Assembly (NCBI GenBank): GCA_040954595.2
Contig: CM082586.2
Span: 867,630 to 931,629, forward strand
Direction of reading: 5' to 3'
Length of the DNA: 64,000 nt
From: Balanoglossus misakiensis
Lineage: Eukaryota > Animalia > Hemichordata
The notes below the pieces were generated by a model. The model saw only the letters and a list, made by a program, of their open reading frames with translations. It searched no databases and was not told where the DNA came from. Of the stretch, positions 1,792 to 48,700 are shown one piece after another (positions within the stretch are counted from its first letter, which is position 1; each line of letters starts with the position of its first letter). Made by a program: the position numbers and the translations under genes.

Positions 1792-4295
1792 TTATTCATA
1801 TACGTTTCTGTTTTTTCTCTTTGTCTGTGGTTTCTGCTTATTGGAAGGGAAGGTTATTTTGAATAGCTCCCACAATATTAAACCGAACACTAATATACAG
1901 AGTGGAACCTGACAAATTGCCCAAATGGTATAGTCGATTGCAGTAATGAACCACTGAAATGCAGGATGACCGCTTATGGTATCCCAACACTTGGTCATTG
2001 ATTGCCTTAGATAAAATGGTAATAGTATATTTAGGAGGAGTGTGACCACCAGCATTGCTGCTGCTGAAAGGCGTCTTCCAAATGTGTATATGGAATGTGT
2101 AATGAACCACTGAAATGCAGGATGACCGCTTATGGTATCCCAACACTTGGTCATTGATTGCCTTAGATCAAATGGTAATAGTATATTTAGGAGGAGTGTG
2201 ACCACCAGCATTGCTGTTGCTAAAAGGCGTCTTCCAAATGTGTATATGGAATGTGTAATGAACCACTGAAATGCAGGATGACCGCTTATGGTATCCCAAC
2301 ACTTGGTCATTGATTGCCTTAGATCAAATGTTAATAACATGTTTAGGAGGAGTGTGACCACCAGCATTGCTGCTGCTGAAAGGCGTCTTCCAAACGTGTA
2401 TATGAAACCAATGCTGGTTTGATATCTACCATCTGGTGGTGGAGCTTCTCCAACTGTTTTGGCCTTAGACAAGAACTCATCCACTTTTCGGGCAACTCTG
2501 TCTGTCGAACTACTGTCATCTGGAACCACAGGGATGACGTTGCCAACGGAAGTGACACCAGCGTGTTCTAAAAAACATGAAAAAGAATGAGAATAGAAGA
2601 TGAATAGTTTTTCGCAATGCAACCCAACCAATACACGCACAATCACACCCTGTGTAACACTTTGAATATTCTTGTTTCCAGGTCAGAGAATTAAAGACAT
2701 GAATGCCAATTTCAAAAGAGCCACCCTACACCACATCTTGGTGGTTGTAACACCTTTCCAGAATAGTAAGAACACCCCGCCAGCATGCTACACCTATCAC
2801 GTTTGACTCCGACGTATAAATGTCATACAGTTGGCATTCCTAGAAGATTATAGTTCATATGCGTTAAAATTGGACTTACTAAAGCTTTGGGTAACGTCGG
2901 CAATTCCATCTACAGTGACCTGAAGCAACGCATCGTAAGTCAAAGGTCGAATGAAGAAACCGCCCGGTAAATTCAGTGCCAAGACTCGGCGCAGTGAGTC
3001 CCATATCGCGCTGAAGACTCCATTTGGAATGCGTTGGAAGACCTGCCTTACTAGTCTTGGGGAATCTGGCAAACCATTCTTGAATCTGAATGTGGCGAGG
3101 TCGTTGATTGATGGCCGTAGTTTCTCAACCATCACGTTTGGAGCTTCCCGGTAATGTTGGCTGGGTTCAACAGACAGCTTAGCCTGATACACCTTTACAA
3201 TTTCTGGCTTAGAGTCAATTCCTGGCTTAGAGTGGGTTTTGTGTATTTTGACTTGGAATATGCCGTCGGATTCACTTAGACCACTGATGAATGGATTCAG
3301 CTGAAAATACTGAATCAGATTTTCTGGAATTTCGTCGCCAGCCGTAACAACGAGGACAGTTTGGAAACCAGAAACTCTGCGAATCAAACAGACAAACCAC
3401 CGAACAAAGCGATGCAAGCGACTCTTCTGATTAAAACATTGGTTAAGTTGGGCCTCGTAAAAGCTATACAGAGGAACTTCAGTTTGGAAAAATTCTTTCA
3501 AACGTTTGGTCTGCTCGCCGTTGAATTTGTCCCAAATTGTTATGCATCGTCTTCTTTCGGCAAGACTGTGGGCGATGACATCATTGTAATGCCAAAGCTG
3601 CTGCCATTTCTCTGCAAACAGACAATGGTCTTCCAAACGTTCAGATTTCTCATCTCCATAGATAACAAGAAACACCGACCCTGTGATAAGAGACACAATA
3701 TTTTTCTTTTATTAAAATAGACAACATTAGTTGAGTTTCGATTATGATGTCTCGGCGACGGCGACGAGTATGCTATGGCTTTGTCTACAACTTGCACAGT
3801 CCACGCCGACCATTCTGTTCCAGAATATCATTTGCTCCGAGAAAATTAGTTGGCTGTCATAGTAGCAGTCGAGAGCTAAATGAAACAAGTTCCCCCTGCT
3901 CCTAATTTAGGACACCCACGTCCCAATAATGTTACTGTTTGTTCCTTTCAGTTTCACGACCGATTTACTTCTACAGACAATGACAGAAAAGCCTCACCTT
4001 TCGGAAATGTGAACGAGTCGGTCAGATAGTCTAGTTCGTTCCAGTGATCGACGTTCGCGTCTCTTCGCGACGGGGTGAAGAGACTTCGTGTCTGCCTGGC
4101 GTCGATCACTATAACCGCTGTTCTACTGGCAAAGTTACCGAGGTCATGTCGCTTTGCGCCATTTTCCACCACCAGGAACTCACTCTGACCTTCGCCATTC
4201 TCCAGTATCGACTCGAGGAGTCCTCTGACTTTTTCCCCTGCTCCCCGAAAGCTTTGGAGTTTAGTTTCTATTGATATGTAATGTTTTGCAGGCAT
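1792..4295 (-). CDS. Family paralogue P1 (~624 aa): TIR-like domain, second alpha/beta domain, multiple TM helices
   Basis: Exons 4295-3998, 3680-2880 and 2567-1792 with GT-AG phase-1 introns and continuous frame. Motifs TKLQSF, VIVIDARQTRSLFTPSRRDANVDHWNEL and GSVFLVIYGDEKS. The last exon has three hydrophobic repeats plus a final TM segment. Confidence 0.85.
1943..2404 (-). repeat. Coding tandem repeat, 3 x 156 bp (52 aa), in the last exon of P1
   Basis: gtaatgaaccactgaaatgcagg recurs at 1943, 2099 and 2255. The unit is IYTFGRRLSAAAMLVVTLLLNxLLxFDLRQSMTKCWDTISGHPAFQWFITHS. Confidence 0.95.
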
Positions 4296-4431
4296 GTTGG
4301 AAGAAGAACTTATGCACGCGTATGTACAGAACAACAACTCGACAGACTGCCTATATTTCTACTGCGCACACCCTTGTGACCTTTAGCCTCAATATGGCGT
4401 TACTGCATTACACGGATAATGCATTTGTGAC

Positions 4432-5560: not shown

Positions 5561-6009
5561 GTTTAAAGTTGAATAAAGCTTTATTTAAAAGATACATCTA
5601 TAGAGATAATCCAGTTATAACAACAATTGTCACTTTTGTCGTTTAACACGATAGGCCGTGTGTTGTTCTACCTGTGTTACATGCGAATGTCCACACACGT
5701 AAATTTCCTAGTTAAGTAATATCTCACAGGGTTTTGTGGAATACAGAAAATTGTCTCTAATAAGACTCTAAGATAAAAAATTATACGTTATTGAGTAAGA
5801 CATGCGAATTGGAGACACACAATAATTTTGTCATAGTGTGATGATTGAGTATTACTAGTATATGAAAGCACATTTTACCAGCTATGAACTGATTATGCCA
5901 ATTCCAATATGTACATGATATCATAACTATTGAAGATCTGCTCATTCATAATATCTTATTTCTGTACAGTTCAGATCTCACATAGAGTTTTGTCCTATTC
6001 ATACACTTT

Positions 6010-8133
6010 TCACTTGAATTTAACAATTCCTCGTTTCTGGTAAATCTCCGCGGCAGACAGCAACCCCAGCACTATTTGTTGGGTTTGATTGTCTTTATCC
6101 GTAGTTTTGGCAGCTCCGTCCGTGTGATCCATGTTCGACATGCGGTAAATTCTTGACGGGTCGATTCCTAGGCTGTTGGAGACAGTCACTACTGCTTTAT
6201 CGACTTCCTCCTTTGTTATCAAGTCAATGTGTGTTATTATAACAAACACAGGAATTCCCCGTCCTAAAATGCATAAAAAATCGTGAAAATAGTGACTGTG
6301 TAGTTCCGTTGTCAGTTAACATAAACGAGATATAACTTACAATTTATTTACCCCTACTTTTTCATTGATAACAGCGACCTTAGTTTGTGATGTATTTTAA
6401 ACGCAGAATATGCATTTCACGAGCTTACGTGTATGATTTACTCAATGAAAGATTTAACCAAGTCAGTGCGAAAGAATATGAGTGAAGATCTAGCATACTT
6501 TCTTACAAATGCGACCACGCTGAAGCTCCAGGTCAGTGGTGAAATGAGTAACATTATAACTTGTCCTTCTTAGATGCAAACTTTTGTAGTGCAAAGGCTA
6601 ACATTTTTTTCGCAGCGGACTCCCAAAGTTTTTTTTTAATCTCCATCCTTTTCCCATAGAGTAAAGAGACAATTTTGCTATATGGAAAGATTACCTTTAG
6701 ACTGTGCAGCCTCAATCACAGCGGAACCGAGCTGGTCTAGCTCTGCCATACCCTTATGGACGATAGCTACTGCGTGGACCTCACCATGTTTTTCCTGAAA
6801 GAAATATCTTACAAGCGCTATCGGTGAATACCACGCCCAATAATCCAGTGGCGCGTTCGAAGGGTATTTCCCATCCAGAATGTCTTTGATAACCTTGACG
6901 GACCGGTCTTTCCCGCCTCTGGTGTGGATGTTTAGCAGAGTCTGACCAGGAACATCAATACACTGGAAACAACTGCCTTTCACGTCAATTTTGAACGGAG
7001 TCAAGACAGCAGTACCAGCGGCCGCTGCCTTCCATGTTGAAGCTAGTGGTGTGTGGTGCCCTGATACCGCCTGCATGTAAAACAACACGTCCTCTGTTAT
7101 ACAAACTTACGCCAAGTACTTGCTGCTATATTCCAAGGTACAAATGTTAAAATGTCTCTAATGTCAAGTGTTGTCCCGAGGTAGCTATCCACCAAACCTA
7201 CTCGGCATTTGTGACGGGCTTTTCTTAAACCAAGTCTGACGTAAATTAGTTCAAAAGGGCAGATTTTCTAATTTCTCCACACCTTGCTGTGAAGAAATCT
7301 GACTGGGGATATCTGTGATCAAATATGAATACCTGATGCTTACTTTAATAATGGTATTGATAGTGGATGATTTTCCGTGTCCTGGCGCGCCAATTAATAC
7401 TATGTTTTGACCATGGCATTTTTCCTTGATGTCACCTGCAAATGCAAGACATGAATGTACAATTATAGTGGTAACATGCATTCCATTGAAGTAAAACATT
7501 CAAAGAATACAGAAATGGATCATTTAAAAGTTGCTTTAACTACTCACACTCATGTATGTGCCTGTGAATGAATGAATGAATGAATGAATGAATGTATGTA
7601 TGTATGTATGTATGTATGTATGTATGTATGTATGTATGTATGTATGTATGTATGTATGTATGTATGTATGTATGTATGTATGTATGTATGTATGTATGTA
7701 TGTATGTATGTATGTATGTATGTATGTATGTATGTATGTATGTATGTATGTATGTATGTATGCATGCATGCATGCATGCATATGTATGTATGTATGTATG
7801 TATATATGTATGCAATGCTTACTTAAAGTAGCGATCCTCATTGTTCTTGTCTGCACATTGAATTCCAGATTTCTTGCCTTCAATTCCCTGATGGTACTAA
7901 ACGGATCCAAAACCACACTCTCTTCACCAGGCAGAGAAACGATTGTCCTCAGGATGATTTCATTGCCCGTTTCTCGAACATCCCTGAGGTCATCATCGGT
8001 CAGACCAAATTCTTCAATTCTCTCCTTTATCTTTACAACAATATCTACGACTCGATGTTCCTCTGAGCACAGGAATCGAACGGGATCTCGTGCTGTGTTG
8101 GGTCTCACCATAATTTCCACGACTGAGAGAGAT

Positions 8134-8226
<93 letters not shown>

Positions 8227-10067
8227 GTCGCTAACATAATTATATATGTATGTATAGAGGTTATAACACTCGCGAAGGACGCGATATTTTCCTATTCAAG
8301 TCATTATTAATTTTAATTGTCAAATGTTCCTTATTAAGGGAAAACCACCTTAATTTTTCAAAAAAGCTAATGAACTGTTTACATAACACGGTAGCAAGTT
8401 CAGCTCCTTCCTGTCATTGTGTATAAGTTGCGCCACTGTAGACAAACACGTATACTTCTATATTTAATTAATGTGTTCCAGGTATAACAAAACGAAAGCT
8501 TACTATTCAATGTATTATTCTTTTATTTCGAAGAGTTGCATGGAAACAGGTGAGTCATGGGAATTCCCGGAACCGCGGGTGACCAAATGAAAACGAAAGC
8601 CGATATCATTCATTGATTTTTAACGAATCGATTCAGTGCACCATGTTAAGATGTGTGACCATCGCGATCTACTTGTTTGAACGGAACGTGTAACCCATGT
8701 GTCCGCGTTCAAGTCTCATGGAACCATTACCTGTGATTTTTAGTCATGTTTTTTTATCTTATTGTGTGTATCTACTGCATGTTATACTAGTAAGCGTGTA
8801 TTCAGCTACATGTATAAGCAATACTGCTGTACATAATGCATTATTGTTGAAAAGTCAAGTCCGGACTGGAAACAACAATGACAATGGTCGTTACACAAAC
8901 GTGGACTATGGTGACAAGCAAAAAAGCTGAGTATTTGAGCATAACACAAGGAGCATGCGTATGACAATATAGCTCAATAATAACCAAGGGATAAATCGTT
9001 TGATTGTCAGGCATTCATGTATTTCATATGAAATACCTGTGCGTAATACACAAACTCTTCATATTTTGTTATATTTATCGATACTCACCTTCATCGCTTT
9101 TGGAAGGTTTAATTTTGAAAACAAGTTCCTCATACTTCAAATTTTGTACTTTAGTTCGTGGTTTGAGTTGCTGTTCGTGGCCGTCAATGATTTTCATAAG
9201 AACGACTTCGCTTCCGCCTTTTTTGGCTTTTGCAGTAACGTCTGCGGCCAGATTAAAGTGCGCGATATTCTCGCGAATATACTGAGCCAGATCAGAGACA
9301 ACGGTACTCTTTACATAGGGAAGACTGACGGGGTTGACTGACTCTATGTATCTGACAGGTATGGCGTAGGCTGAAAAAAAATAACGACTGTTTAATCAAA
9401 TACACGAACACTTGGTCTACGTGCTAAAGTATGAGAGAGCGAAATTGCCTCAAATTTTAAATTCAAAATTGCTGCCTGTGTTGTTAACGCCATTGGGGAA
9501 TGGAAAGTAGTGATTTTTTTAAACAAGACGGGGAGCCCCCTGTATTCCTCGTTGTTTTCATAAACGACTCACCAAACACTATAATGTTGAAAGAATTGTA
9601 ATGTTTGGAGGACTATCATTTTTCTGAAAATCTACTCGACACTATCTCAAGCATTTCAGTGATATCACATGCAAGTTAGCTTTGGGCGTAGCGCCATGTA
9701 CAGGTTACACAAAAGTCAGTGACATTTGCATAATTTCTTTATGTTTGGATGAACGTTTCCTCGTGCGGAAAAAATGGAAATATGACTTACTAGGCTCTCG
9801 CTGGGAAGTAAATTCTACAATGTTGTTTTTCTGAATGACTGATACTGGTTCAGAAAACTTCAATTTCCTTTTTTCTCCTTTGTCGTCCTTTAAAAGCAGA
9901 CCAACTTGATTGATATTGATATCGTCACCACTCAACCCGAACAGACCAGCCTTGCTCTTCAGTAGAAGCGCCAGTTCATGAACGGTGTCTGTCTCTTTGC
10001 ATGTCAATGGTATCTCGTTCTCACCAGCAGGTGGGTACTTCACGTAGATTTTCTTCTCGCCGCTCAT
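6010..10067 (-). CDS. Triple ubiquitin-like domain / IFI44-like P-loop GTPase fusion (~526 aa)
   Basis: Exons 10067-9791, 9370-9089, 8122-7823, 7435-7344, 7070-6695 and 6263-6010 total 1581 nt in frame. Motifs: G1 GAPGHGKSS, G3-like DVPG, IKDILDGKYP, VHAVAIV, G4-like IITHID and LGIDPSRIYRMSN, in the order known for IFI44/IFI44L. Exon 1 aligns by eye to ubiquitin (IYVK...LTCKETDTVHELALLLKSKAG...IQKNNIVEF). Confidence 0.8.
7565..7810. repeat. (TGAA)n/(TATG)n microsatellite, intronic
   Basis: Tetranucleotide array seen directly. It produces the spurious MYVC/HTYI ORFs. Confidence 0.97.
8137..8223. repeat. (AG)n microsatellite forming the polypyrimidine tract of the 8122 acceptor on the minus strand
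   Basis: Dinucleotide array seen directly, next to the acceptor. Confidence 0.97.
8489..8600. promoter_or_regulatory. Composite immune enhancer or alternative promoter: ISRE-like, AP-1, NF-kB, ISRE-like
   Basis: AAAACGAAAGC at 8489-8499, TGAGTCA at 8551-8557, GGGAATTCCC at 8559-8568 and GAAAACGAAAGC at 8589-8600. Confidence 0.65.
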
Positions 10068-11029
10068 AACTGCAAAGGCGGGGGTTTCAGCGATACTGAA
10101 TACCAGTATACCAGTAAACACTCACTGTGAGTTTGGTAAAAATGGCGACCACGAGCAAGTAATATTCGAAACGAAAAGTAATCCACGAATCTTGCACTGT
10201 GAAGGATAAATATTTACATTACGTCAATACTAGTATAACGTGTCAAGTCGGTCGGTGTGGCATGATATATGAATCAAGACGCGTTGCCGATACTCACTTC
10301 CGCTCAGAAAATAGTGCGTTTGAAAGGCAGACGTTATAGGTGACCAAACATTGTCTTTGTATGATTGCAAAATATCTGTGCAACTAAGAAAGATGCAAAC
10401 CCAGCGCGGCTATTCTATGAAGACCTCTTGACCTCAAAGATAAAAACAAATACCCAGAGAAGTTGACCATTAACATACCATATTGTGATTGGTTGAAATA
10501 AAGGGAATTTCCCTACAAGCCAGCTTCTACTTAAGGCCGGGTCCATTAGCAGAGCCATAGACTGGTACTCTATGCACTTGTTCGAAATAAGGCTAAGATC
10601 CCATCAACTAAGGAAAGGTAATATTTTTTCAATCATTGGTCTTAAATGAAGGTTAGGGGGACGATCTACAACAGACTCAAAACTGAAAAGCAACGTTTGT
10701 GATCTAACCGTATGCACGGCTGTTCATTCATGGTAACTCGCTATGTTTCTTTGTTGTGAACGACTGCGTCACATAACCTTTGTTGATGCTGAAAAAAGCA
10801 CGGTGTCTTCAACAAGGCTGATATACACCAACAGATGATATAAGGCAGGCTGCATATTAGTGGCATAATCTATGTTTTTTTCTTTGCATACTTGGAGCAT
10901 GCGTGGATAATTTGAGCAATGACAACTACTTATGTCCTATTTCTAGAAATTGGCCAATCACTATTTTTTTTACAAACTTAAATATTCTGATATCTACTTT
11001 GACTTTCTTATATTGATAGATACTTAGTG
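10068..11029. promoter_or_regulatory. Putative bidirectional promoter between the Ubl-IFI44-like gene (-) and P2 (+)
   Basis: The start codons are head-to-head ~960 bp apart. GAAACGAAAAGT at 10168-10179, TTACGTCA (CRE/CEBP-like) at ~10219-10226 and GGGAATTTCCC (NF-kB) at 10503-10513. Confidence 0.6.
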
Positions 11030-29434: not shown

Positions 29435-32400
29435 ATGGCAACGGGGCAGGTTCTCGGGCAAGGTATGTTTGTGTCAAATCGTCCCTCTGTCTACTCCATT
29501 TCTAATTTGCTTTCCGCCACAACTGAACTTCCGGTAGTTCCGGTATGGCTACATGAAATACCCATACTGTTGTTTACTGTACTCGTAGTTCGTATTAGGC
29601 AGAACTATTTGCCAGACTAACCACGTTATGTATAGTGTTTAATTTCCAGTGTTCATAATAACATTATTGTGGCATTAATGACAATAGATCTAAATCACAA
29701 AACCTGGTATCGTGAATATTCACAGTGGAGGTAACTTGACTATATAATTACCATGCTAATCATACTATATTGAAATGTTGAGTTATTTTCACTTTCGCTT
29801 TTGAGACAGTAGGTGCACGTTAAATTCGCTTAGCTAGCTTTCGTGATTCTCATGAAGCAATTTAAGTCACGTCACAAGTCCAATCAACGAACGAATATTA
29901 AAGTTCTGATATATTTGAAGCTGGAGCACATGATTTCCTGTTTGATTCACGTACCTATAAGGCTTGCTGGTTTTGAATATTTAATTTGTTATTCATCGTG
30001 TTGTCCTTTAGGTTGGAGACAGAAAGTTTACGTGTATACCAAGTTACACAGCTTCAAAAAGGCGGCTGAGGAGGTCAAAGTTCTTCTGAAAAAAGTGTGC
30101 AAAGACATGAATGAAATTGACGTCGAGGATTATCCTCCCGGGGACTACCAGCTGCAGCCTGGACAGTTCCTAGCGGTAACTGTAGTGGTGGTTATCGATG
30201 CTAGACAAACGAGGGCAGTAATCACACCGGATAGAAGAGACGACAATGTGGACCATTGGAACGAATTAGACATGCTGTCTACCAAACAAACAGCCCCACA
30301 AGGTAATAGAACAATGCTATAAAGGCCTATCCTTGTTACTGTCATGTCATTTCAAAGGTCAAGTCAACAGAGCAAAGATAAGACAAATAATCATGTAATT
30401 GGTTGCCTTATAATCACGGAAGGTTTTAATAATTCCAACATTTAAACTAGCCAGGATATCATGCAAAGAACGTTGTAAGTGAGATTGAAGTGCATGTATA
30501 CTATAATGAAATGTACTTTTAACTATCCGGAAATGCCACAATAAGCGACGTTTTGGCAACATGAACACCGTAGTATTGATTTGTGGTTATTTCACCAAGT
30601 TCTGTTTACTTTCGGCAGGTTCCATTTTGATTGTGATATACGGAGATGAGAGCTCTAAAGGTGGAACTGACTTGGTATCTCAGAAATGGTACCAGGTGTG
30701 GAAGTTCAATGACCCCCTTGCTTATCAAGCTGCAGAGAGGGGAACCGTCTTTACGATTAATGAGGTTTTTAAAGTTGAACAGGAAGAAAAGATTCGAAAT
30801 TATCTGAACGACGCCCTCCTCCTACCACACGTTACAGGGGCAATGAATATCCTCTTTCTTGCACCTCAAATGGAGATCGAGAAAATTCCCGTCTTGAATT
30901 CCAATCCTTTTCTGATTCAGAACGAGAGTGAGGAATGCCGAAAGTGTGGCAGGAAGTTCTGGGGATTTTCCCACGTAAGAGATTCTTACAGCCAAAACAG
31001 AAAAACAGACCCTTTGAAATTGAAAGTATACCATTATGTTTGGCCCAAAATAAGTTCCGAGGATGGAACTCCTCAACTTGGTTTGGGAAAACTCTTTCCT
31101 GCATCCGGCAAAGCCAGCTGTGACTGTGGTCCACTAGACAAGTTTGATCGACTGATCTTCACATGTGAGACTGAAGACAGTTTCAAGAAATCGTGCAGAA
31201 TTAACCCGCCCTCGGAAATAGGAGATGCACTCAGAGTTGAATTAGGTAAGAACAACCTAGTGCCAGTAATACCCCCTTGCAGTGAGCCCTGACACATTGT
31301 GAAACAAGATACTAAAATCACTCATAGTCACCGATATATATATGCTCTGTATTAACGTGTGTACTATATAATTTCGAGTTCTGGTAATGTAAAAGAGGCC
31401 AATGCTACTCCCAGAACGCTGAGATGATACAGGTCAATCTTTTTGACTGCATTCTCCCTTTATTTGGAGATCTGGTGCAGAAGGTGTATTGGTCCAATCA
31501 TCCCATTGCCCATGCATGTGTAAACATTTAAGGTACAAATGTGCAAACTCACTATTTTCTATCATTGCATGAAGTACAAATCTCTTTCGGTATTTGATTT
31601 CTGATAGAAAATCTTGGTGTGCTTCTACGTGGCGAAGCTCTGCCTCTGGTCGCAAGTGACATGCAACAAAGCGATGAAGCTATGCTTGGCGTTATCCGGT
31701 CACTTAAACAACGAACACAAGAAAATGGTGTCCTTGAAGAAAATCAATTCACAACTGGTCCTGAGGAAGATACAGTGCATATACTGGGCAAGAAAATTGA
31801 TCGTTCTACACTCATTAGGCTCTATGTGAGTCACATCATCCAGATTCCAACACTGCTAGGTACGAAATCTGTGAAAATATGAGTTTCTTGTCTTCAGAGT
31901 AAAACTTTCATACGTTGGTATTGTTTCAGCGAAGTAATGATTTTCCGAGGCCAATATAACGAGAAAACTAAGCCATTTATTTAAAAACTGAAGCACTATT
32001 TACTTCTGCACTATTCGTTGTAGTTACTCGCTTTTGAAGCTTGAGTTTTCATACTTAGTGTTCAACATGATTATATGCAAACAGTTCTGTGTTATTGTTC
32101 ATGTGTAGATCCAGTGTTGACTTTGAAAGGTGAAGATAAAAGAAAAGTGGAAAATCAAAATGCAGAGGTAAGAATGCTCTTGGACACAGAAAGTCGACAG
32201 TCATAACTCCTGATTTTGCAAAGCGACATTTGGACATCTTGCCAAAAGTGCAACGTGCACGTTTGCTTTCATGGGCATGTAATATGTTGTCAGTAAGCTT
32301 TTTTATATTAGTAATATTAAAGAAAGTTGAGGCCTTTTATGTTTCCATATTCAAAACATATTATGTACATTGAACTACACGTTTCAATTTTATTTTAATT

Positions 32401-33982: not shown

Positions 33983-36900
33983 ATGGCAACGGGGCAAGTT
34001 CTCGGGCAAGGTATGTTTGTGTCAAATTGTCCCTCTGTCTACTCCATTTCTAATTTGCTTTCCGCCACAACTGAACTTCCGGTAATTCCGGTATGGCTAC
34101 ATGAAATACCCTTACTGTTGTTTACTGTACTCGTAGTTCGTAATTAGGTAAAACTATTTGCCAGACTAACCACGTTCTGTATAGTGTTTAATGTCCAGTG
34201 TTCATAAAACATTATTGTGGTATAGATCTAAATCACAAAACCTGGTATCGTGAATATTCACAGTGGAGGTAACTTGACTATATAATTACCATGCTAATCA
34301 TACTATATTGGAATGTTGAGTTATTTTCACTTTCGCTTTTGTGACAGTGGGTGCACATTGAATTCGCTTAGCTAGCAAACGTGATGAACCTGAAGCAACT
34401 TAAGTCACGTCACAAGTCCAATTAATGTACGAATATTAAAGTTGTCAGAACTTTCGACTTATGATACAAGCAACTTAAAATGGGGACAATGTGTATATGT
34501 TATAAAGGCACGGCAATTGCAAGAAAAGGCGTCTATAGGACGAATCACCTGGTTCTGATATATTTGAAGCTGGAGTACATAATTTCCTGTTCGATTCACG
34601 TACCTATAAGGCTTGCTGGTTTTGAATATTTAATTTGTTATTCATCGTGTTGCCCTTCAGGTCCGAGACAGAAAGTTTACGTGTTTACCAAGTTACACAG
34701 CTTCAAAAAGGCGGCTGAGGAGGTCAAAGTTCTTCTGAAAAAAGTGTGCAAAGACATGAATGAAATTGACGTCGAGGATTATCCTCCCGGGGACTACCAG
34801 CTGCAGCCTGGACAGTTCCTAGGGGTAACTGTAGTGGTGGTTATCGATGCCAGACAAACGAGGGCAGCAATTACACCGGAGCGAAGAGACGACAATGTGA
34901 ACCATTGGAGCAACTTAGACATGCTGTCTACCAAACGAACAGCCCCACAAGGTAATTGAACAATGCTATAAAGGCCTGTTCTTGTTACTGTCATGTCATT
35001 TCAAAGGTCAAGTCAACAGAGCAAAGATAAGACAAATAATCATGGAATTGGTTGCCTTATAATCACGGAAGTTTTATATAATTCCAACTAGTGAGCATTT
35101 TTAATAACAAGACAAACTAGCCAGGATATCATGTAAAGAACGTTGTAAGTGAGATTGAAGTGCATGTATACTATAATGAAATGTAATTTAATTTTTGCTA
35201 CCCGCAAATGCCACAATAAGCGACGTTTTGGCAACATGAACACTGTAGTACTGTTTTGTGGTTATTTCACCAAGTTCTGTTTACTTTCGGCAGGTTCCAT
35301 TTTGATTGTGATATACGGAGATGAGAGCTCTAAAGGTGGAACTGACTTGGTATCTCAGAAATGGTACCAGGTGTGGAAGTACAATGACCCCCTTGCTTAT
35401 CAAGCTGCAGAGAGGGGAACCGTCTTTACGATTAATAAGGTTTTTAAAGTTGAACAGGAAGAAAAGATTCGAAATTATCTGAACGACGCCCTCCTCCTAC
35501 CACACGTTACAGGGGCAATGAATATCCTCTTTCTTGCACCTCAAATGGAGATCGAGAAAATTCCCGTCTTGAATTCCAATCCTTTTCTGATTCAGAACGA
35601 GAGTGAGGAATGCCGAAAGTGTGGCAGGAAGTTCTGGGGATTTTCCCACGTAAGAGATTCTTACAGCCAAAACAGAAAAACAGACCCTTTGAAATTGAAA
35701 GTATACCATTATGATTGGCCCAGAATAAGTTCCGAGGATGCAACTCCTCAACTTGGTTTGGGAAAACTCTTTCCTGCATCCGGCAAAGCCAGCTGTGACT
35801 GTGGTCCACTAGACAAGTTTGATCGACTGATCTTCACATGTGAGACTGAAGACAGTTTCAAGAAATCGTGCAGAATTAACCCGCCCTCGGAAATAGGAGA
35901 TGCACTCAGAGTTGAATTAGGTAAGAACAACCTAGTGCCAGTAATACCCCCTTGCAGTGAGCCCTGACACATTGTGAAACAAGATACTAAAATCACTCAT
36001 AGTCACCGATATATATATATGCTCTGTATTAACGTGTGTACTATATAATTTCGAGTTCTGGTAATGTAAAAGAGGCCAATGCTACTCCCAGAACGCTGAG
36101 ATGATACAGGTCAATCTTTTTGACTGCGTTCTCCCTTTATCGGGAGATCTGGGGCAGAAGGTGTATTGGTCCAGTCATCCAATTACCCATGCATGTGTAA
36201 ACATTTAAGGTACAAATGTGCAAACTCACTATTTTCTATCATTGCATGAAGTAAAAATCTCTTTCGGTATTTGATTTCTGATAGAAAGCATTGGTGTGCT
36301 TCTGCGTGGTGAAGCTCTGCCTCTGGCCACTGGTGACATGAAAGAAAGCAATGACGCTATGCTTGGCGTTATCCGGTCACTTAAACAACGAACACAAGAA
36401 AATGGTGTCCTTGAAGAAGATCAATTCACAACTGGTCCTGAGGAAGATACAGTGCATATACTGGGCAAGAAAATTGATCGTTCTACACTCATTAGGCTCT
36501 ATGTGTATCACATCATCCAGATTCCAACACTGCTAGGTACGAAACCTGTGAAAATTTGAGTTTCTTTTCTTCAAAGTAAAACTTTCTTAAGTTGGTATGA
36601 TTTCTGCGAAGTAATGATTTTCCGAAGCCAATATCACGAGAAAACGTTTAAAGACTAGGTAATTTATTAAAAATTGAAGCACCATTTACTTCTGTATTAT
36701 TCGTTGTAGTTACTCGCTTTTGAAGATTGAGTTTTCATACTTAGTTATCAACATGATTATATGCAAACAGTTCTGAGTTATTGTTCATGTGTAGATCCAG
36801 AGTTGACTTTGAAAGGTGAAGATAAAAGAAAAGTGGAAAATCAAAATGCAGAGGTAAGCATGCTCTTGGATACAGAAAGTCGACAGTCATAACTCTTGAT

Positions 36901-45792: not shown

Positions 45793-48700
45793 ATGGCTGC
45801 TCAGCAAAGAGTTCAAGCTTACCTGGAAAGGCACAAAATCGGTGCACTGTTTGAGGTAGGTACTTGCACTGAAGAAGTCGTTGTTGTGTTGTTGATTTCT
45901 GTCATCTGATCAGCTACCTTTATTATTAAACTGCAATAATACCAGTCTACCGAAGCGTCAGGACTAAAAGTATTGCAGCTAGCCCGCCTTTTGCGGAGCT
46001 GCCGGTGCTCAATCAGAATGTCTCGGGGCATGGATGTAGAAGTTTTGACTCGAGACCAGTGCAATCATCTCCATCTGTTGTGTTTAGGATCTGATGGCCA
46101 GGCTGATTCAAAACACGCCAGAGGAACCAGTACAATACTTGATCAAGGTCCTTCAGAGAAAAGATGAAAAAGGCAAACGACCTTATCAAGAGAACCCTTT
46201 AGCCAGTCGATCTCGTCCACCATCTGGGGCTTCCAAGAGGACAGTGGCAGTCAGCAAGAGTTATGAGGATATACCACGCTCCAAGACGAGCGGTGATGTC
46301 TTGAGGAGAAGTACTGGTGGAGCAGCGCAATGGGCAGCAACAGATCCTGTGAGAGTGAGTAAAGGTGACAGGGGGTATGAAAAACCCTGGTCCACCAACA
46401 TGAAAAGAGGCAAACCAGTTCAACAGACCAGCACCACAACCATGGGGAGGGTGACGATTGATGACAGCGAAAATACAAGACCTGCAGGTAAAAATGATGC
46501 AATTGCCTGTATGAGAATAATTCATTTTGTGATATCATGAAGATAACGCAAGTTTTTGTTTTCAGACAGTTAATCAAATGATGTGTACCTATACAAAGCA
46601 GTATTTGATTTGGATATCTGTTCAACAGGTCGCAAAACCAAGAAACCTGAGTGGGACCACCACACCAAATTATCAACTCAGAACTTTGATGAGATGTTTG
46701 AAATGAATCAACCAACAAAGAAGAGTGGAGGTAATATATACAGCACTTTCATTGAACTCAAAGTGAGGCCAATGGGGAAAGTTGACCAATCACATGATCA
46801 AGGATGTTTCCCCATTGGCCTCACTTCGAGTTCATATTCATGGTGGCTGCTTGAAGTTTTGGTCACTGAGTTCATTTTTTTAAACCAGTAAATAACATAG
46901 TTTTTTTCCGTTTTTTTTACAGCCTCTAAGTCTGCATGGGGTGCTATTGAACAGGTATATAAGAAAGAATTGTTCATAAGACTGTCATTTTTACTGAAAA
47001 AGCATCCTGAGATGCATACTACCATAGTGCTTAAAGACAGGTGGTGTATAATACACTAAATACTGCAGCCATACATACATACTCAAGATACTGTCTCTCA
47101 GCAAAGAGTGTATTTTTTTTCCTTCCCAGGACGAAGACTTGCTCTACACCAGCTCTGGCTACAGAGGTGTCCAGCGCCAGCGTACACAGTTTGAGGATGA
47201 CCCCCTAGCTGGTGAATTAGTTGTCCCCAAATATCGGTCAAAACAAGATGATGATGAGGGATATAGCACTTCCAGCAGTGTGTAAGTTGTCCCAGTGAAT
47301 GCTACGCATAAAAAACTAAAATAAAATCTTCCAGTTTTCTGTCATACAATATTCCTGCTGTTTTTGTTCTGCAGAGCCAGTCGACACGCCAAGCCAGACA
47401 AGAAATCCAAGTCACACAAGAAAGAACTGGAAAAGTACATTAAAACACAGAGTGCCGGTAAAACACAAATACCCAGTGGTGATGTCACAGATGATGAGTA
47501 TGATGATGCTATAGATATGCTGGGTATGTCATCAAATTTTTTTAAAGTGAAAATAGAAAATACTGGGTGTAGCACACAAGGTCTTTTTTGGCCTGGGAGA
47601 AGAATGTGTCATATTTCAGTACTCATTTCAGTAAAATCGAGTCATGCTTATCACCATGCAACTGATTGTGTTGCAGAAAACCTGGATGATCTTCGCAGTG
47701 AAGGTGTCACTCAAGTAAAGTCTTCTGGGAACAGAATCAGTAAGGTAATTCTGTGACGCTGCAGTTATAGTTATTCTGTGATGCTGTGGTTGTAATTACT
47801 CTGTTATGCAGCAATTGTGCACCAGTATTCTGTGATGCAGGGGATGTAAATATCACTTCATTTTTTATCTCATTCCCAGTCTTTCCATCGCGGCCAGTCA
47901 GAACCTCAGGTGAAAGTCAGTATTTGTGCCAGATGTGCCAAGTAAGTTATCCTTCATCATTGTTGTGTTGTGTTTCTTGTTCAACACCTAGTTCCTAGTG
48001 TTTAACGTGCGTACACCCTGTATGTGTAGAGTCACCATAGTTGTTGTTCGAACTATGAATTTGTCAACACTGACAGTGTTTTTTTCACATACACTGGCCA
48101 TTGACAATCATTAACATACTGTAGGAAATAGAATGACCAATCATTTACCCAGTGTATACTCATTTCATTGATACTCTGTAGAATCATGGGTGGGCAGCCC
48201 AGTGGGGGAGTTCAGAGCGAATATGGCTCAGTGGTCGGATATGGTGAACTACCGGACTATGATGATCGAGGCAGTGATTACCCATCGGCCAGACCCTTTG
48301 GTGCTGTGCTGGACGATGATGAGTTTGAGAGTGTGTCCCAAGTACACAGTCCGGTAAGTTCACAGGAGATTGGATGGAGAGATTGTCTGACCCCCGACTG
48401 ACAGGCAAATGATACTTTGATAGATTGGTCAGTAAAACAGACACAGAGAGACTGACAGATTCATGCTGTATATACTTACATGTACATGTGCATAGGAAGG
48501 TAAAGAAGCTAATGCAATTTCATCTCTCTTGTTACAGCGTCGTCCAGTGTGGCATGATGACACAGACACCTGTAAGTATTTGAGTAATTCCTCATTCTTA
48601 AAAAAAACTTGTTGCTGGAAAACTTCTGCAAACCAAGAAGCCTGAGTGGGACAACCTGCCAATATCTATCTGGTAAATCATAGCGATCAAAAGTAGTAAA

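Follow-up and report, generated by a model that had tools for sequence, protein, structure and literature searches.

Three predicted ubiquitin-fold repeats joined to a predicted IFI44-type GTPase domain in a gene of the hemichordate Balanoglossus misakiensis

IFI44 and IFI44L are antiviral interferon-stimulated genes (PMC8913501). IFI44 has a putative N-terminal TLDc domain (PMC5614904), and in oyster it forms a multigene family that is induced by poly(I:C) (PMC7064767). Ubiquitin-like domains (UBLs) are missing from the OAS protein of the acorn worm Saccoglossus (PMC6307210). Here we describe a gene of Balanoglossus misakiensis in which three predicted ubiquitin-fold repeats precede a GTPase domain predicted to be of the IFI44 type. 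It lies on the minus strand of a stretch of 64,000 nucleotides (nt) of assembly GCA_040954595.2 (contig CM082586.2, positions 867,630 to 931,629), which is called the window; all coordinates refer to it. The reading towards which we lean, with modest confidence, is that of a six-exon frame whose repeats are non-conjugated docking modules, replacing the TLDc domain on an IFI44-type GTPase that is likely induced in immunity.

Gene structure and acorn-worm relatives

The gene extends from position 10067 to position 6010. Splicing of the window sequence joins six exons of 277, 282, 300, 92, 376 and 254 coding nt into a frame of 526 amino acids (aa) and a stop codon, with no internal stop. All five introns are GT...AG introns, with phases 1, 1, 1, 0 and 1. 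Coding exon 1 (9791..10067) contains the start codon and beta-grasp repeat 1, which is of a short type (92 codons) and shares 49-58% identity with residues 1-91 of four proteins of Ptychodera flava; a homologous domain models as a beta-grasp. Exon 2 (9089..9370) encodes repeat 2, which is of a type with an extra helix and is 53-59% identical to repeat 2 of the relatives P0001, P0003 and P0004, with an RA-domain match at Z 9.7, a root-mean-square deviation (rmsd) of 1.9 and 70 aligned residues. Exon 3 (7823..8122) encodes repeat 3, which is also of the extra-helix type, adjoins the GTPase and is 36-47% identical to five P. flava proteins; its fold is assigned from a model of three domains and from matches that span several domains. 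Both exon 2 and exon 3 are symmetric cassettes of phase 1-1. Exon 4 (7344..7435) is without a start codon of its own and begins the GTPase with the P-loop (G1, GAPGHGKS), to which weak P-loop Pfam matches were obtained, the best to AIG1 with an E-value of 8e-5, below the cut-off. Exon 5 (6695..7070) holds the core of the GTPase, in which G3 (DVPG) and a threonine that is a candidate for G2 are found, as delineated by homolog search and alignment, and exon 6 (6010..6263), placed by alignment, contributes the G4 variant (THID), a C-terminal helix and the stop codon. All six exons are on the minus strand. An initial annotation, made from the sequence by eye, had proposed that three repeat exons splice in frame onto the GTPase exons, which the introns and the stop-free frame confirm; its translation of the middle exon (9370-9089) is correct.

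The repeat exons are related to one another: in a database of six sequences, exons 2 and 3 share 28% identity over 88 aa (E 5e-7) and exons 1 and 3 share 26% over 39 aa (E 2e-4). A search of introns 1 and 2 and of the upstream region detected no ATG-bearing mini-exon for a one-repeat isoform. Within the window a repeat profile and a GTPase profile match this gene only, which is thus present there as a single copy. As judged from splicing and frame, the gene is an intact, single six-exon unit.

Microsatellites flank exon 3, with TACA/TTCA units in intron 3 (7560-7810) and CT units in intron 2 (8135-8225). The CT run of intron 2 is at the same time the polypyrimidine tract of exon 3 and yields spurious long open reading frames.

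Exon 5, used as a query, matched two proteins of P. flava. In one of these, XP_070533647.1 (536 aa), all six exons are matched in order with 47-83% identity, so the exon chain is more than a product of chance. Three further full-length models match residues 1-523/526 of the spliced product (44-53% identity), and a search with the N-terminal part of XP_070533647.1 added three paralogs. Collinear RefSeq models occur in two acorn worms, P. flava and Glandiceps talaboti (44-56% identity), in agreement with the earlier claim of one gene. The window product is 50-56% identical to the three-repeat P. flava paralogs P0001, P0003 and P0004 and 44% identical to the nearest G. talaboti protein. When a profile built from eight repeats was compared with 1.84 billion cluster representatives at an E-value of 0.001 or better, 15 matches were obtained, 14 of which belong to this family: 12 with a full GTPase, one with a GTPase truncated behind a CARD (P0017) and one with none (P0008). 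The fifteenth, P0015, a 1167-aa protein of FctA repeats, was dropped as a false positive arising from summed weak repeat scores.

The set of relatives comprises 18 predicted gene models, namely 12 P. flava records (two of them near-identical), four from G. talaboti and two others. Three clear repeats are present in nine of them and two in five; one further relative has two repeats and a weakly matching third, and the remaining three have a single repeat (one with a partial second). P0005 is without exactly the block of exon 2, and P0002 is without exons 1 and 2. Repeats and a full GTPase are found in one chain in 16 of the 18 relatives, from two genera, and a 17th has a truncated GTPase. Of the 12 P. 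flava records, 11 are placed on a contig of one length, and most carry close accession numbers; in the searches made here the relatives with a placed source are acorn worms only. Scans of viral and metagenome contigs gave 265 and 289 pattern matches, respectively, among which no relative was confirmed. By these alignments the gene belongs to a family that has expanded in acorn worms and whose members carry one, two or three repeats.

Two members deviate in architecture. P0017 (273 aa) consists of a CARD (CARD_2 family, Pfam E 1e-17), one repeat and the truncated GTPase, and is possibly a link of the family to signalling of the RIG-I-like receptor (RLR)/MAVS type, or a faulty gene model. P0008 (P. 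flava XP_070533637.1) has three repeats followed by an unrelated short tail, and is possibly a frameshifted copy or a stand-alone triple repeat.

Folds of the repeats and of the GTPase

The window exons have no match to the ubiquitin clan of Pfam, and searches of Pfam and of PDB sequences with single exons were likewise negative. Homologs show sub-threshold Pfam matches to OTU1_UBXL, PI3K_rbd, Crinkler and DUF7054. An AlphaFold2 model of residues 1-283 of P0006, computed from an alignment of 18 rows, has a mean predicted local distance difference test score (pLDDT) of 90.1 and a predicted template-modelling score (pTM) of 0.43. It contains three well-folded domains whose mutual orientation is not fixed, and the order strand-strand-helix-strand-strand-strand recurs in it three times. 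For this model Foldseek ranks highest, among PDB entries, linear ubiquitin chains (tetra-, tri- and di-ubiquitin), ISG15, the di-UBL of OASL and the USP7 UBLs (best E 2e-11). VIA-align, run over 48,161 chains, places FERM-F1, a ubiquitin variant, UBLs and RA domains in a tie at Z 10-11 (within 1), with 6-22% identity and an rmsd of about 2-3 A over 70-87 residues. Repeat 1 accounts for the majority of the rows, one corresponds to repeat 2, and two align 212-214 residues across all three repeats. For the Atlas model of repeat 1 of P0001 all ten rows are beta-grasp families, with a Crinkler header first by template-modelling (TM) score (0.81 over 88 residues), followed by RA (0.78) and a ubiquitin cluster (0.76); the feature scores of this comparison are all below 0.9 and serve as leads only. 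The beta-grasp pattern seen by eye in the repeat exons is thus borne out by the homolog models and by all three structure comparisons.

Repeats 2 and 3 carry an extra helix compared with the short-type repeat 1, and in a tree of 44 repeats the short type (repeat 1) stands apart from the extra-helix type (repeats 2 and 3) with a support of 94/87, slightly below the bar of the tool. Among 19 proteins no di-glycine was found at repeat ends or at the C-terminus, and the linkers between repeats share no common motif. The window product has no C-terminal LRGG, as the initial annotation had remarked, and none of its repeats ends in GG either. The last repeat is located 21-28 residues before the P-loop in 17 of the 18 P-loop proteins, the exception being P0018, whose second repeat is absent from the alignment. 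It is the least conserved region, with a mean pairwise identity of 0.35 versus 0.43-0.47 for the others (seven proteins). The repeat profile matches polyubiquitin weakly (E 0.5, 34 positions only), and by structural alignment the identity to ubiquitin-type chains is at most 22%. A match of the profile to DNA primase (E 0.002) was rejected as a helix-only match. The repeats are predicted by modelling to be ubiquitin-fold domains of no assignable subfamily and not modifiers.

In the GTPase domain G1 (GAPGHGKS) and G3 (DVPG) are intact, and a Gly-Thr pair is nearly invariant at the expected G2 position. Across 16 aligned homologs the Lys-Ser of G1, the Asp and Gly of G3 and the His and Asp of G4 are invariant. 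The residue after G3 varies in the homolog alignment, and a conserved catalytic glutamine is therefore lacking. P0001 matches Pfam MMR_HSR1 above the cut-off (39 bits), AIG1 remains below its cut-off in exons and homologs (15-24 bits versus 27), and NCBIfam gave bacterial GTPase families only, all sub-threshold. By motifs and fold the domain qualifies as a TRAFAC P-loop GTPase, and it presumably binds GTP.

The initial annotation had called this GTPase IFI44-like, for which the structure search speaks. In the Atlas search of the G domain, in which both sides are predicted models, six of ten rows are TLDc-bearing or IFI44-named clusters (TM 0.81-0.83, about 233 residues), and the remaining rows (TM 0.76-0.82) belong to four clusters of G-domain or hypothetical proteins. 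The G domain is accordingly predicted to be of the IFI44 type. A TLD Pfam match was found in none of the exons or homologs scanned, and despite its G domain the protein is therefore not filed as IFI44.

Proposed role and alternatives

The absence of di-glycine ends, together with an identity to ubiquitin-type chains of 22% at most, makes the repeats likely non-conjugated docking modules. As candidate docking modules they would occupy the N-terminal slot that TLDc holds in IFI44-type GTPases, which we regard as the most economical reading. The repeat that adjoins the GTPase would be a fixed element, and the outer repeats may have been added and removed in the form of exon cassettes of phase 1 and would adjust the choice of proteins, from host or pathogen, to which the GTPase is brought. 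GTP turnover would probably proceed via dimer or oligomer contacts, as in the GIMAP, septin and Toc relatives, because a conserved catalytic glutamine after G3 is lacking.

Because of the predicted kinship to IFI44, the expansion of the family and NF-kB-like sites, the gene family likely serves innate immunity and the protein is likely induced in it. A site of NF-kB consensus is located at 10503..10513, about 440 nt upstream of the ATG, and is a consensus match only; a loose match lies in intron 1 (9530..9539). An IRF-like GAAANGAAA site at 10168..10176, about 100 nt upstream of the ATG, is not enriched over permuted motifs. Intron 2 contains a cluster (8551..8599) of consensus matches for AP-1 (8551), NF-kB (8559), the gamma-activated site GAS (8564) and IRF-like factors (8589), which was spotted by eye before the test was made. 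Between 7436 and 11000 there are three NF-kB-consensus sites versus 0.13 for permuted motifs, and none of 500 permutations reaches three. The intron 2 cluster compares with 5 of 1000 permuted motif triples that cluster anywhere in the window, and with none in 60 simulated windows. Over the window as a whole, consensus matches of the NF-kB-like and IRF-like kind outnumber permuted motifs two- to threefold (10 versus 2.9, 20 versus 6.9 and 13 versus 6.9); this excess may reflect an immune-regulated cluster, or duplicated and A-rich sequence.

Several points weigh against the docking-module reading. The fold evidence comes from the homologs P0006 (44% identical) and P0001 (56%), and the whole-protein AlphaFold2 model, made from five sequences, is poor (pLDDT 54) and was used only for the fold search of the GTPase. 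The database support for the fusion consists of predicted gene models. The IFI44-type label comes entirely from predicted structures, the sequence searches having returned acorn-worm proteins only, and among solved structures the G domain resembles TRAFAC GTPases of a generic kind (EF-Tu, GIMAP, Toc34, EngB). G4 is a variant, THxD (THID in the window), with His in place of the usual Lys. On the regulatory side, the motif test was post hoc and used consensus strings, IRF and AP-1 sites by themselves are not enriched in the gene region, and the window as a whole is rich in kB matches, as the counts above show. In a paper on induced antiviral immunity in Saccoglossus with a challenge of the poly(I:C) type, the terms IFI44, GTPase and ubiquitin are absent from the main text and five related terms are absent from one supplement (PMC10210618).

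Of the other explanations, the one that survives best was put forward in the initial annotation: the three repeats would mimic a polyubiquitin chain, as in OASL. In the form considered here they would bind ubiquitin readers (RIG-I-like CARDs, linear-chain receptors) as the OASL UBL pair does, thereby boosting or dampening immune signalling. Linear tetra- and tri-ubiquitin lead the Foldseek rows, but tandem targets are favoured by any three-domain beta-grasp query, and with an rmsd of 9-17 A and a pTM of 0.43 the geometry of a chain is not reproduced. Between the last strand of repeat 1 and the first strand of the next repeat there are 10 residues in 10 of 15 multi-repeat rows, a gap which we take to equal the spacing of linear polyubiquitin. 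The position that we presume to correspond to Ile44 of ubiquitin, mapped by sequence pattern and not by superposition, is hydrophobic in 15 of 17 type-1 repeats and in 9 of 9 middle repeats; among the last repeats this holds for only 7 of 18, and the last repeat of the window has Arg there. P0017 joins a CARD to a repeat, and OASL, which binds RIG-I CARDs in place of K63 chains (PMC4446440), provides a precedent. Against this, repeats 2 and 3 have the extra helix, some members of the family keep a single repeat, and FERM, RA and UBL domains score as well as ubiquitin-type chains, to which identity does not exceed the value given above. Mimicry of ubiquitin chains, although possible, was therefore not borne out, the repeats being no closer to ubiquitin (6-22% identity) than to FERM-F1, RA and other UBLs, and we regard it as unlikely. 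A more specific form is rather doubtful: an uncleavable ubiquitin-chain mimic on an IFI44-type GTP switch, induced via NF-kB and IRF, in which GTP-driven dimers would show up to six units and paralogs with one to three units would tune the engagement of ubiquitin readers. Should the repeats prove to be such mimics, the strategy of vertebrate OASL would have been invented a second time, independently and with an unrelated enzyme, and the poorly understood IFI44 GTPase would be tied to ubiquitin signalling.

The repeats could instead be effector modules of the RA/RBD kind for a GTP-loaded GTPase, either their own or one of the Ras family; the protein would then be a GTPase that regulates itself or acts in signalling, without a particular role in immunity. 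RA domains share the tied top scores (RALGDS Z 10.8, PLC-epsilon Z 10.2 and Grb10 Z 9.7 on repeat 2; TM 0.76-0.78) but do not rise above the other beta-grasp families. Of the 18 members of the alignment, 2 show weak PI3K_rbd Pfam matches (best E 0.008). The distance from the last repeat to the P-loop is nearly fixed, as this explanation would have it, whereas the low conservation of that repeat (0.35) fits poorly with a fixed interface, and core signalling genes rarely show a lineage-restricted expansion. We hold a role as RA/RBD-like effectors to be distinctly unlikely.

A Crinkler-type conflict protein, in which a CR-Ubl header with a GTPase would derive from a mobile effector system, is quite improbable. 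The top Atlas match of repeat 1 is the Crinkler N-terminal cluster, but its TM margin over the RA, ubiquitin and DUF7054 clusters is only 0.03-0.05. Weak matches to Pfam Crinkler (PF20147) occur in 3 of 18 members (best E 0.004, 14-18 bits versus a cut-off of 24.6) and in none of the window exons, and the repeat profile matched no Crinkler protein among the 1.84 billion representatives at E 0.001. According to a review, the header of CR proteins has a Ubl fold, and in some of them the C-terminus is a GTPase domain (PMC5289972; PMC12957317 is also cited for this origin). A nuclease or kinase module and the LxLFLAK motif are missing, the intron structure is ordinary, and the G domain points to IFI44 clusters.

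The initial annotation had also offered the repeats as a bait for viral proteases. In the form considered here these would be deubiquitinases or deISGylases, and cleavage of the repeats would release or activate the GTPase. In fold the tandem Ubls are similar to ISG15, also to chains whose structures were determined together with viral proteases, and the repeats vary in number and sequence. Proteases of the deubiquitinase type cut after di-glycine, and no domain end of the 19 proteins, nor any repeat junction, has one, nor is there a common linker motif. A cleavable bait is thus unlikely, and the proposal as a whole has very little probability left; a decoy that is not cut is conceivable. That the exons of the repeats and those of the GTPase belong to different genes, or that their fusion is a prediction artefact, as P0008 with its GTPase-less triple repeat and a database record made up of predicted models throughout might suggest, is hardly credible given the single chains in 16 of 18 relatives (and a truncated one in the 17th) from two genera, the agreement of phases at every junction and an exon 4 that has no start of its own.

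Surroundings and comparison with known systems

Upstream of the ATG a 56-nt stretch (10070..10125, minus strand) with the ends GTGAGT...TTGCAG is probably an intron of the 5' untranslated region; it ends 2 nt before the ATG and suggests a non-coding first exon. A candidate polyadenylation signal, AATAAA, is found at 5580..5585 on the minus strand, about 425 nt past the stop codon.

The gene is situated inside a tandem array with ten copies of an unrelated family of about three exons with the motifs DARQTR and YGD, at 1795-4298 on the minus strand and 11003-45173 on the plus strand (second exons near 3687, 11811, 15699, 19995, 23914, 27312, 30603, 35278, 40144 and 43859). Several copies end in a hydrophobic, probably membrane-spanning segment, and in the first copy the membrane-anchor exon contains a unit of about 150 nt in about three in-frame repeats (1950-2400, minus strand). 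The array family has no significant Pfam or PDB match; its strand-helix pattern is TIR-like or Rossmann-like by eye only, and it may be a second unstudied expanded family. The copies at 29834-31292 and 34465-35967 are nearly identical in translation, which suggests that they were duplicated recently or in the assembly. At 46088-47756 on the plus strand, exons that match DUF5586 (E 9e-7 and 0.003) probably belong to a conserved gene that flanks the array.

No description of a triple ubiquitin fold with an IFI44-type GTPase was found in the literature searched, which covered few subscription papers; supplements of genome and immunome studies could list the family. The gene and its domain combination are real, the latter apparently undescribed. 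The architecture claimed as new in the initial annotation thus has no published description that we found, but it is not a one-off, being part of the expanded acorn-worm family. Both parts are known folds, and immune GTPases commonly swap domains. The antiviral genes for GTPases of the IFI44 type are conserved, and an exchange of TLDc for ubiquitin-fold cassettes would mark their N-terminus as an exchangeable targeting slot. The natural series of one, two and three repeats, together with the CARD-bearing form, constitutes a ready test set for the function of this slot. In hemichordates, from which the origin of chordate immunity can be approached, it is a further candidate immune family, unannotated so far and expanded within its lineage.

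The closest entries are the RefSeq proteins XP_070533647.1 (P. flava) and XP_077990219.1 (G. talaboti), which have the same architecture and order as the window gene at 44-56% full-length identity. The members that were looked up, these two included, are named 'uncharacterized protein'; Pfam MMR_HSR1 is the only domain precomputed for them, and their repeats are unannotated. IFI44, IFI44L and the invertebrate IFI44-like proteins, which combine TLDc with a G domain, are alike in the predicted structure of the C-terminal G domain (TM 0.81-0.83), and the window family is likewise expanded, as is oyster IFI44 (PMC7064767); they differ in that TLDc is replaced here by one to three beta-grasp repeats and G4 reads THxD. 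OASL, an OAS-like domain with two C-terminal UBLs, also has tandem Ubls on a nucleotide-binding immune domain, and the chicken OASL di-UBL is among the fold matches, whereas the repeats described here are N-terminal, three in number and very divergent from ubiquitin, two of them with the extra helix, and their partner is a GTPase. With ISG15, FAT10 and linear polyubiquitin the window protein shares head-to-tail beta-grasp domains and short linkers; unlike these, its repeats have neither a di-glycine nor a free C-terminus, do not exceed 22% identity and are permanently fused to a GTPase. Crinkler proteins have a similar N-terminal Ubl header and some of them end in a GTPase (PMC5289972), but the window family matches their Pfam model below threshold only and has no LxLFLAK, nuclease or kinase, and its header is triplicated.

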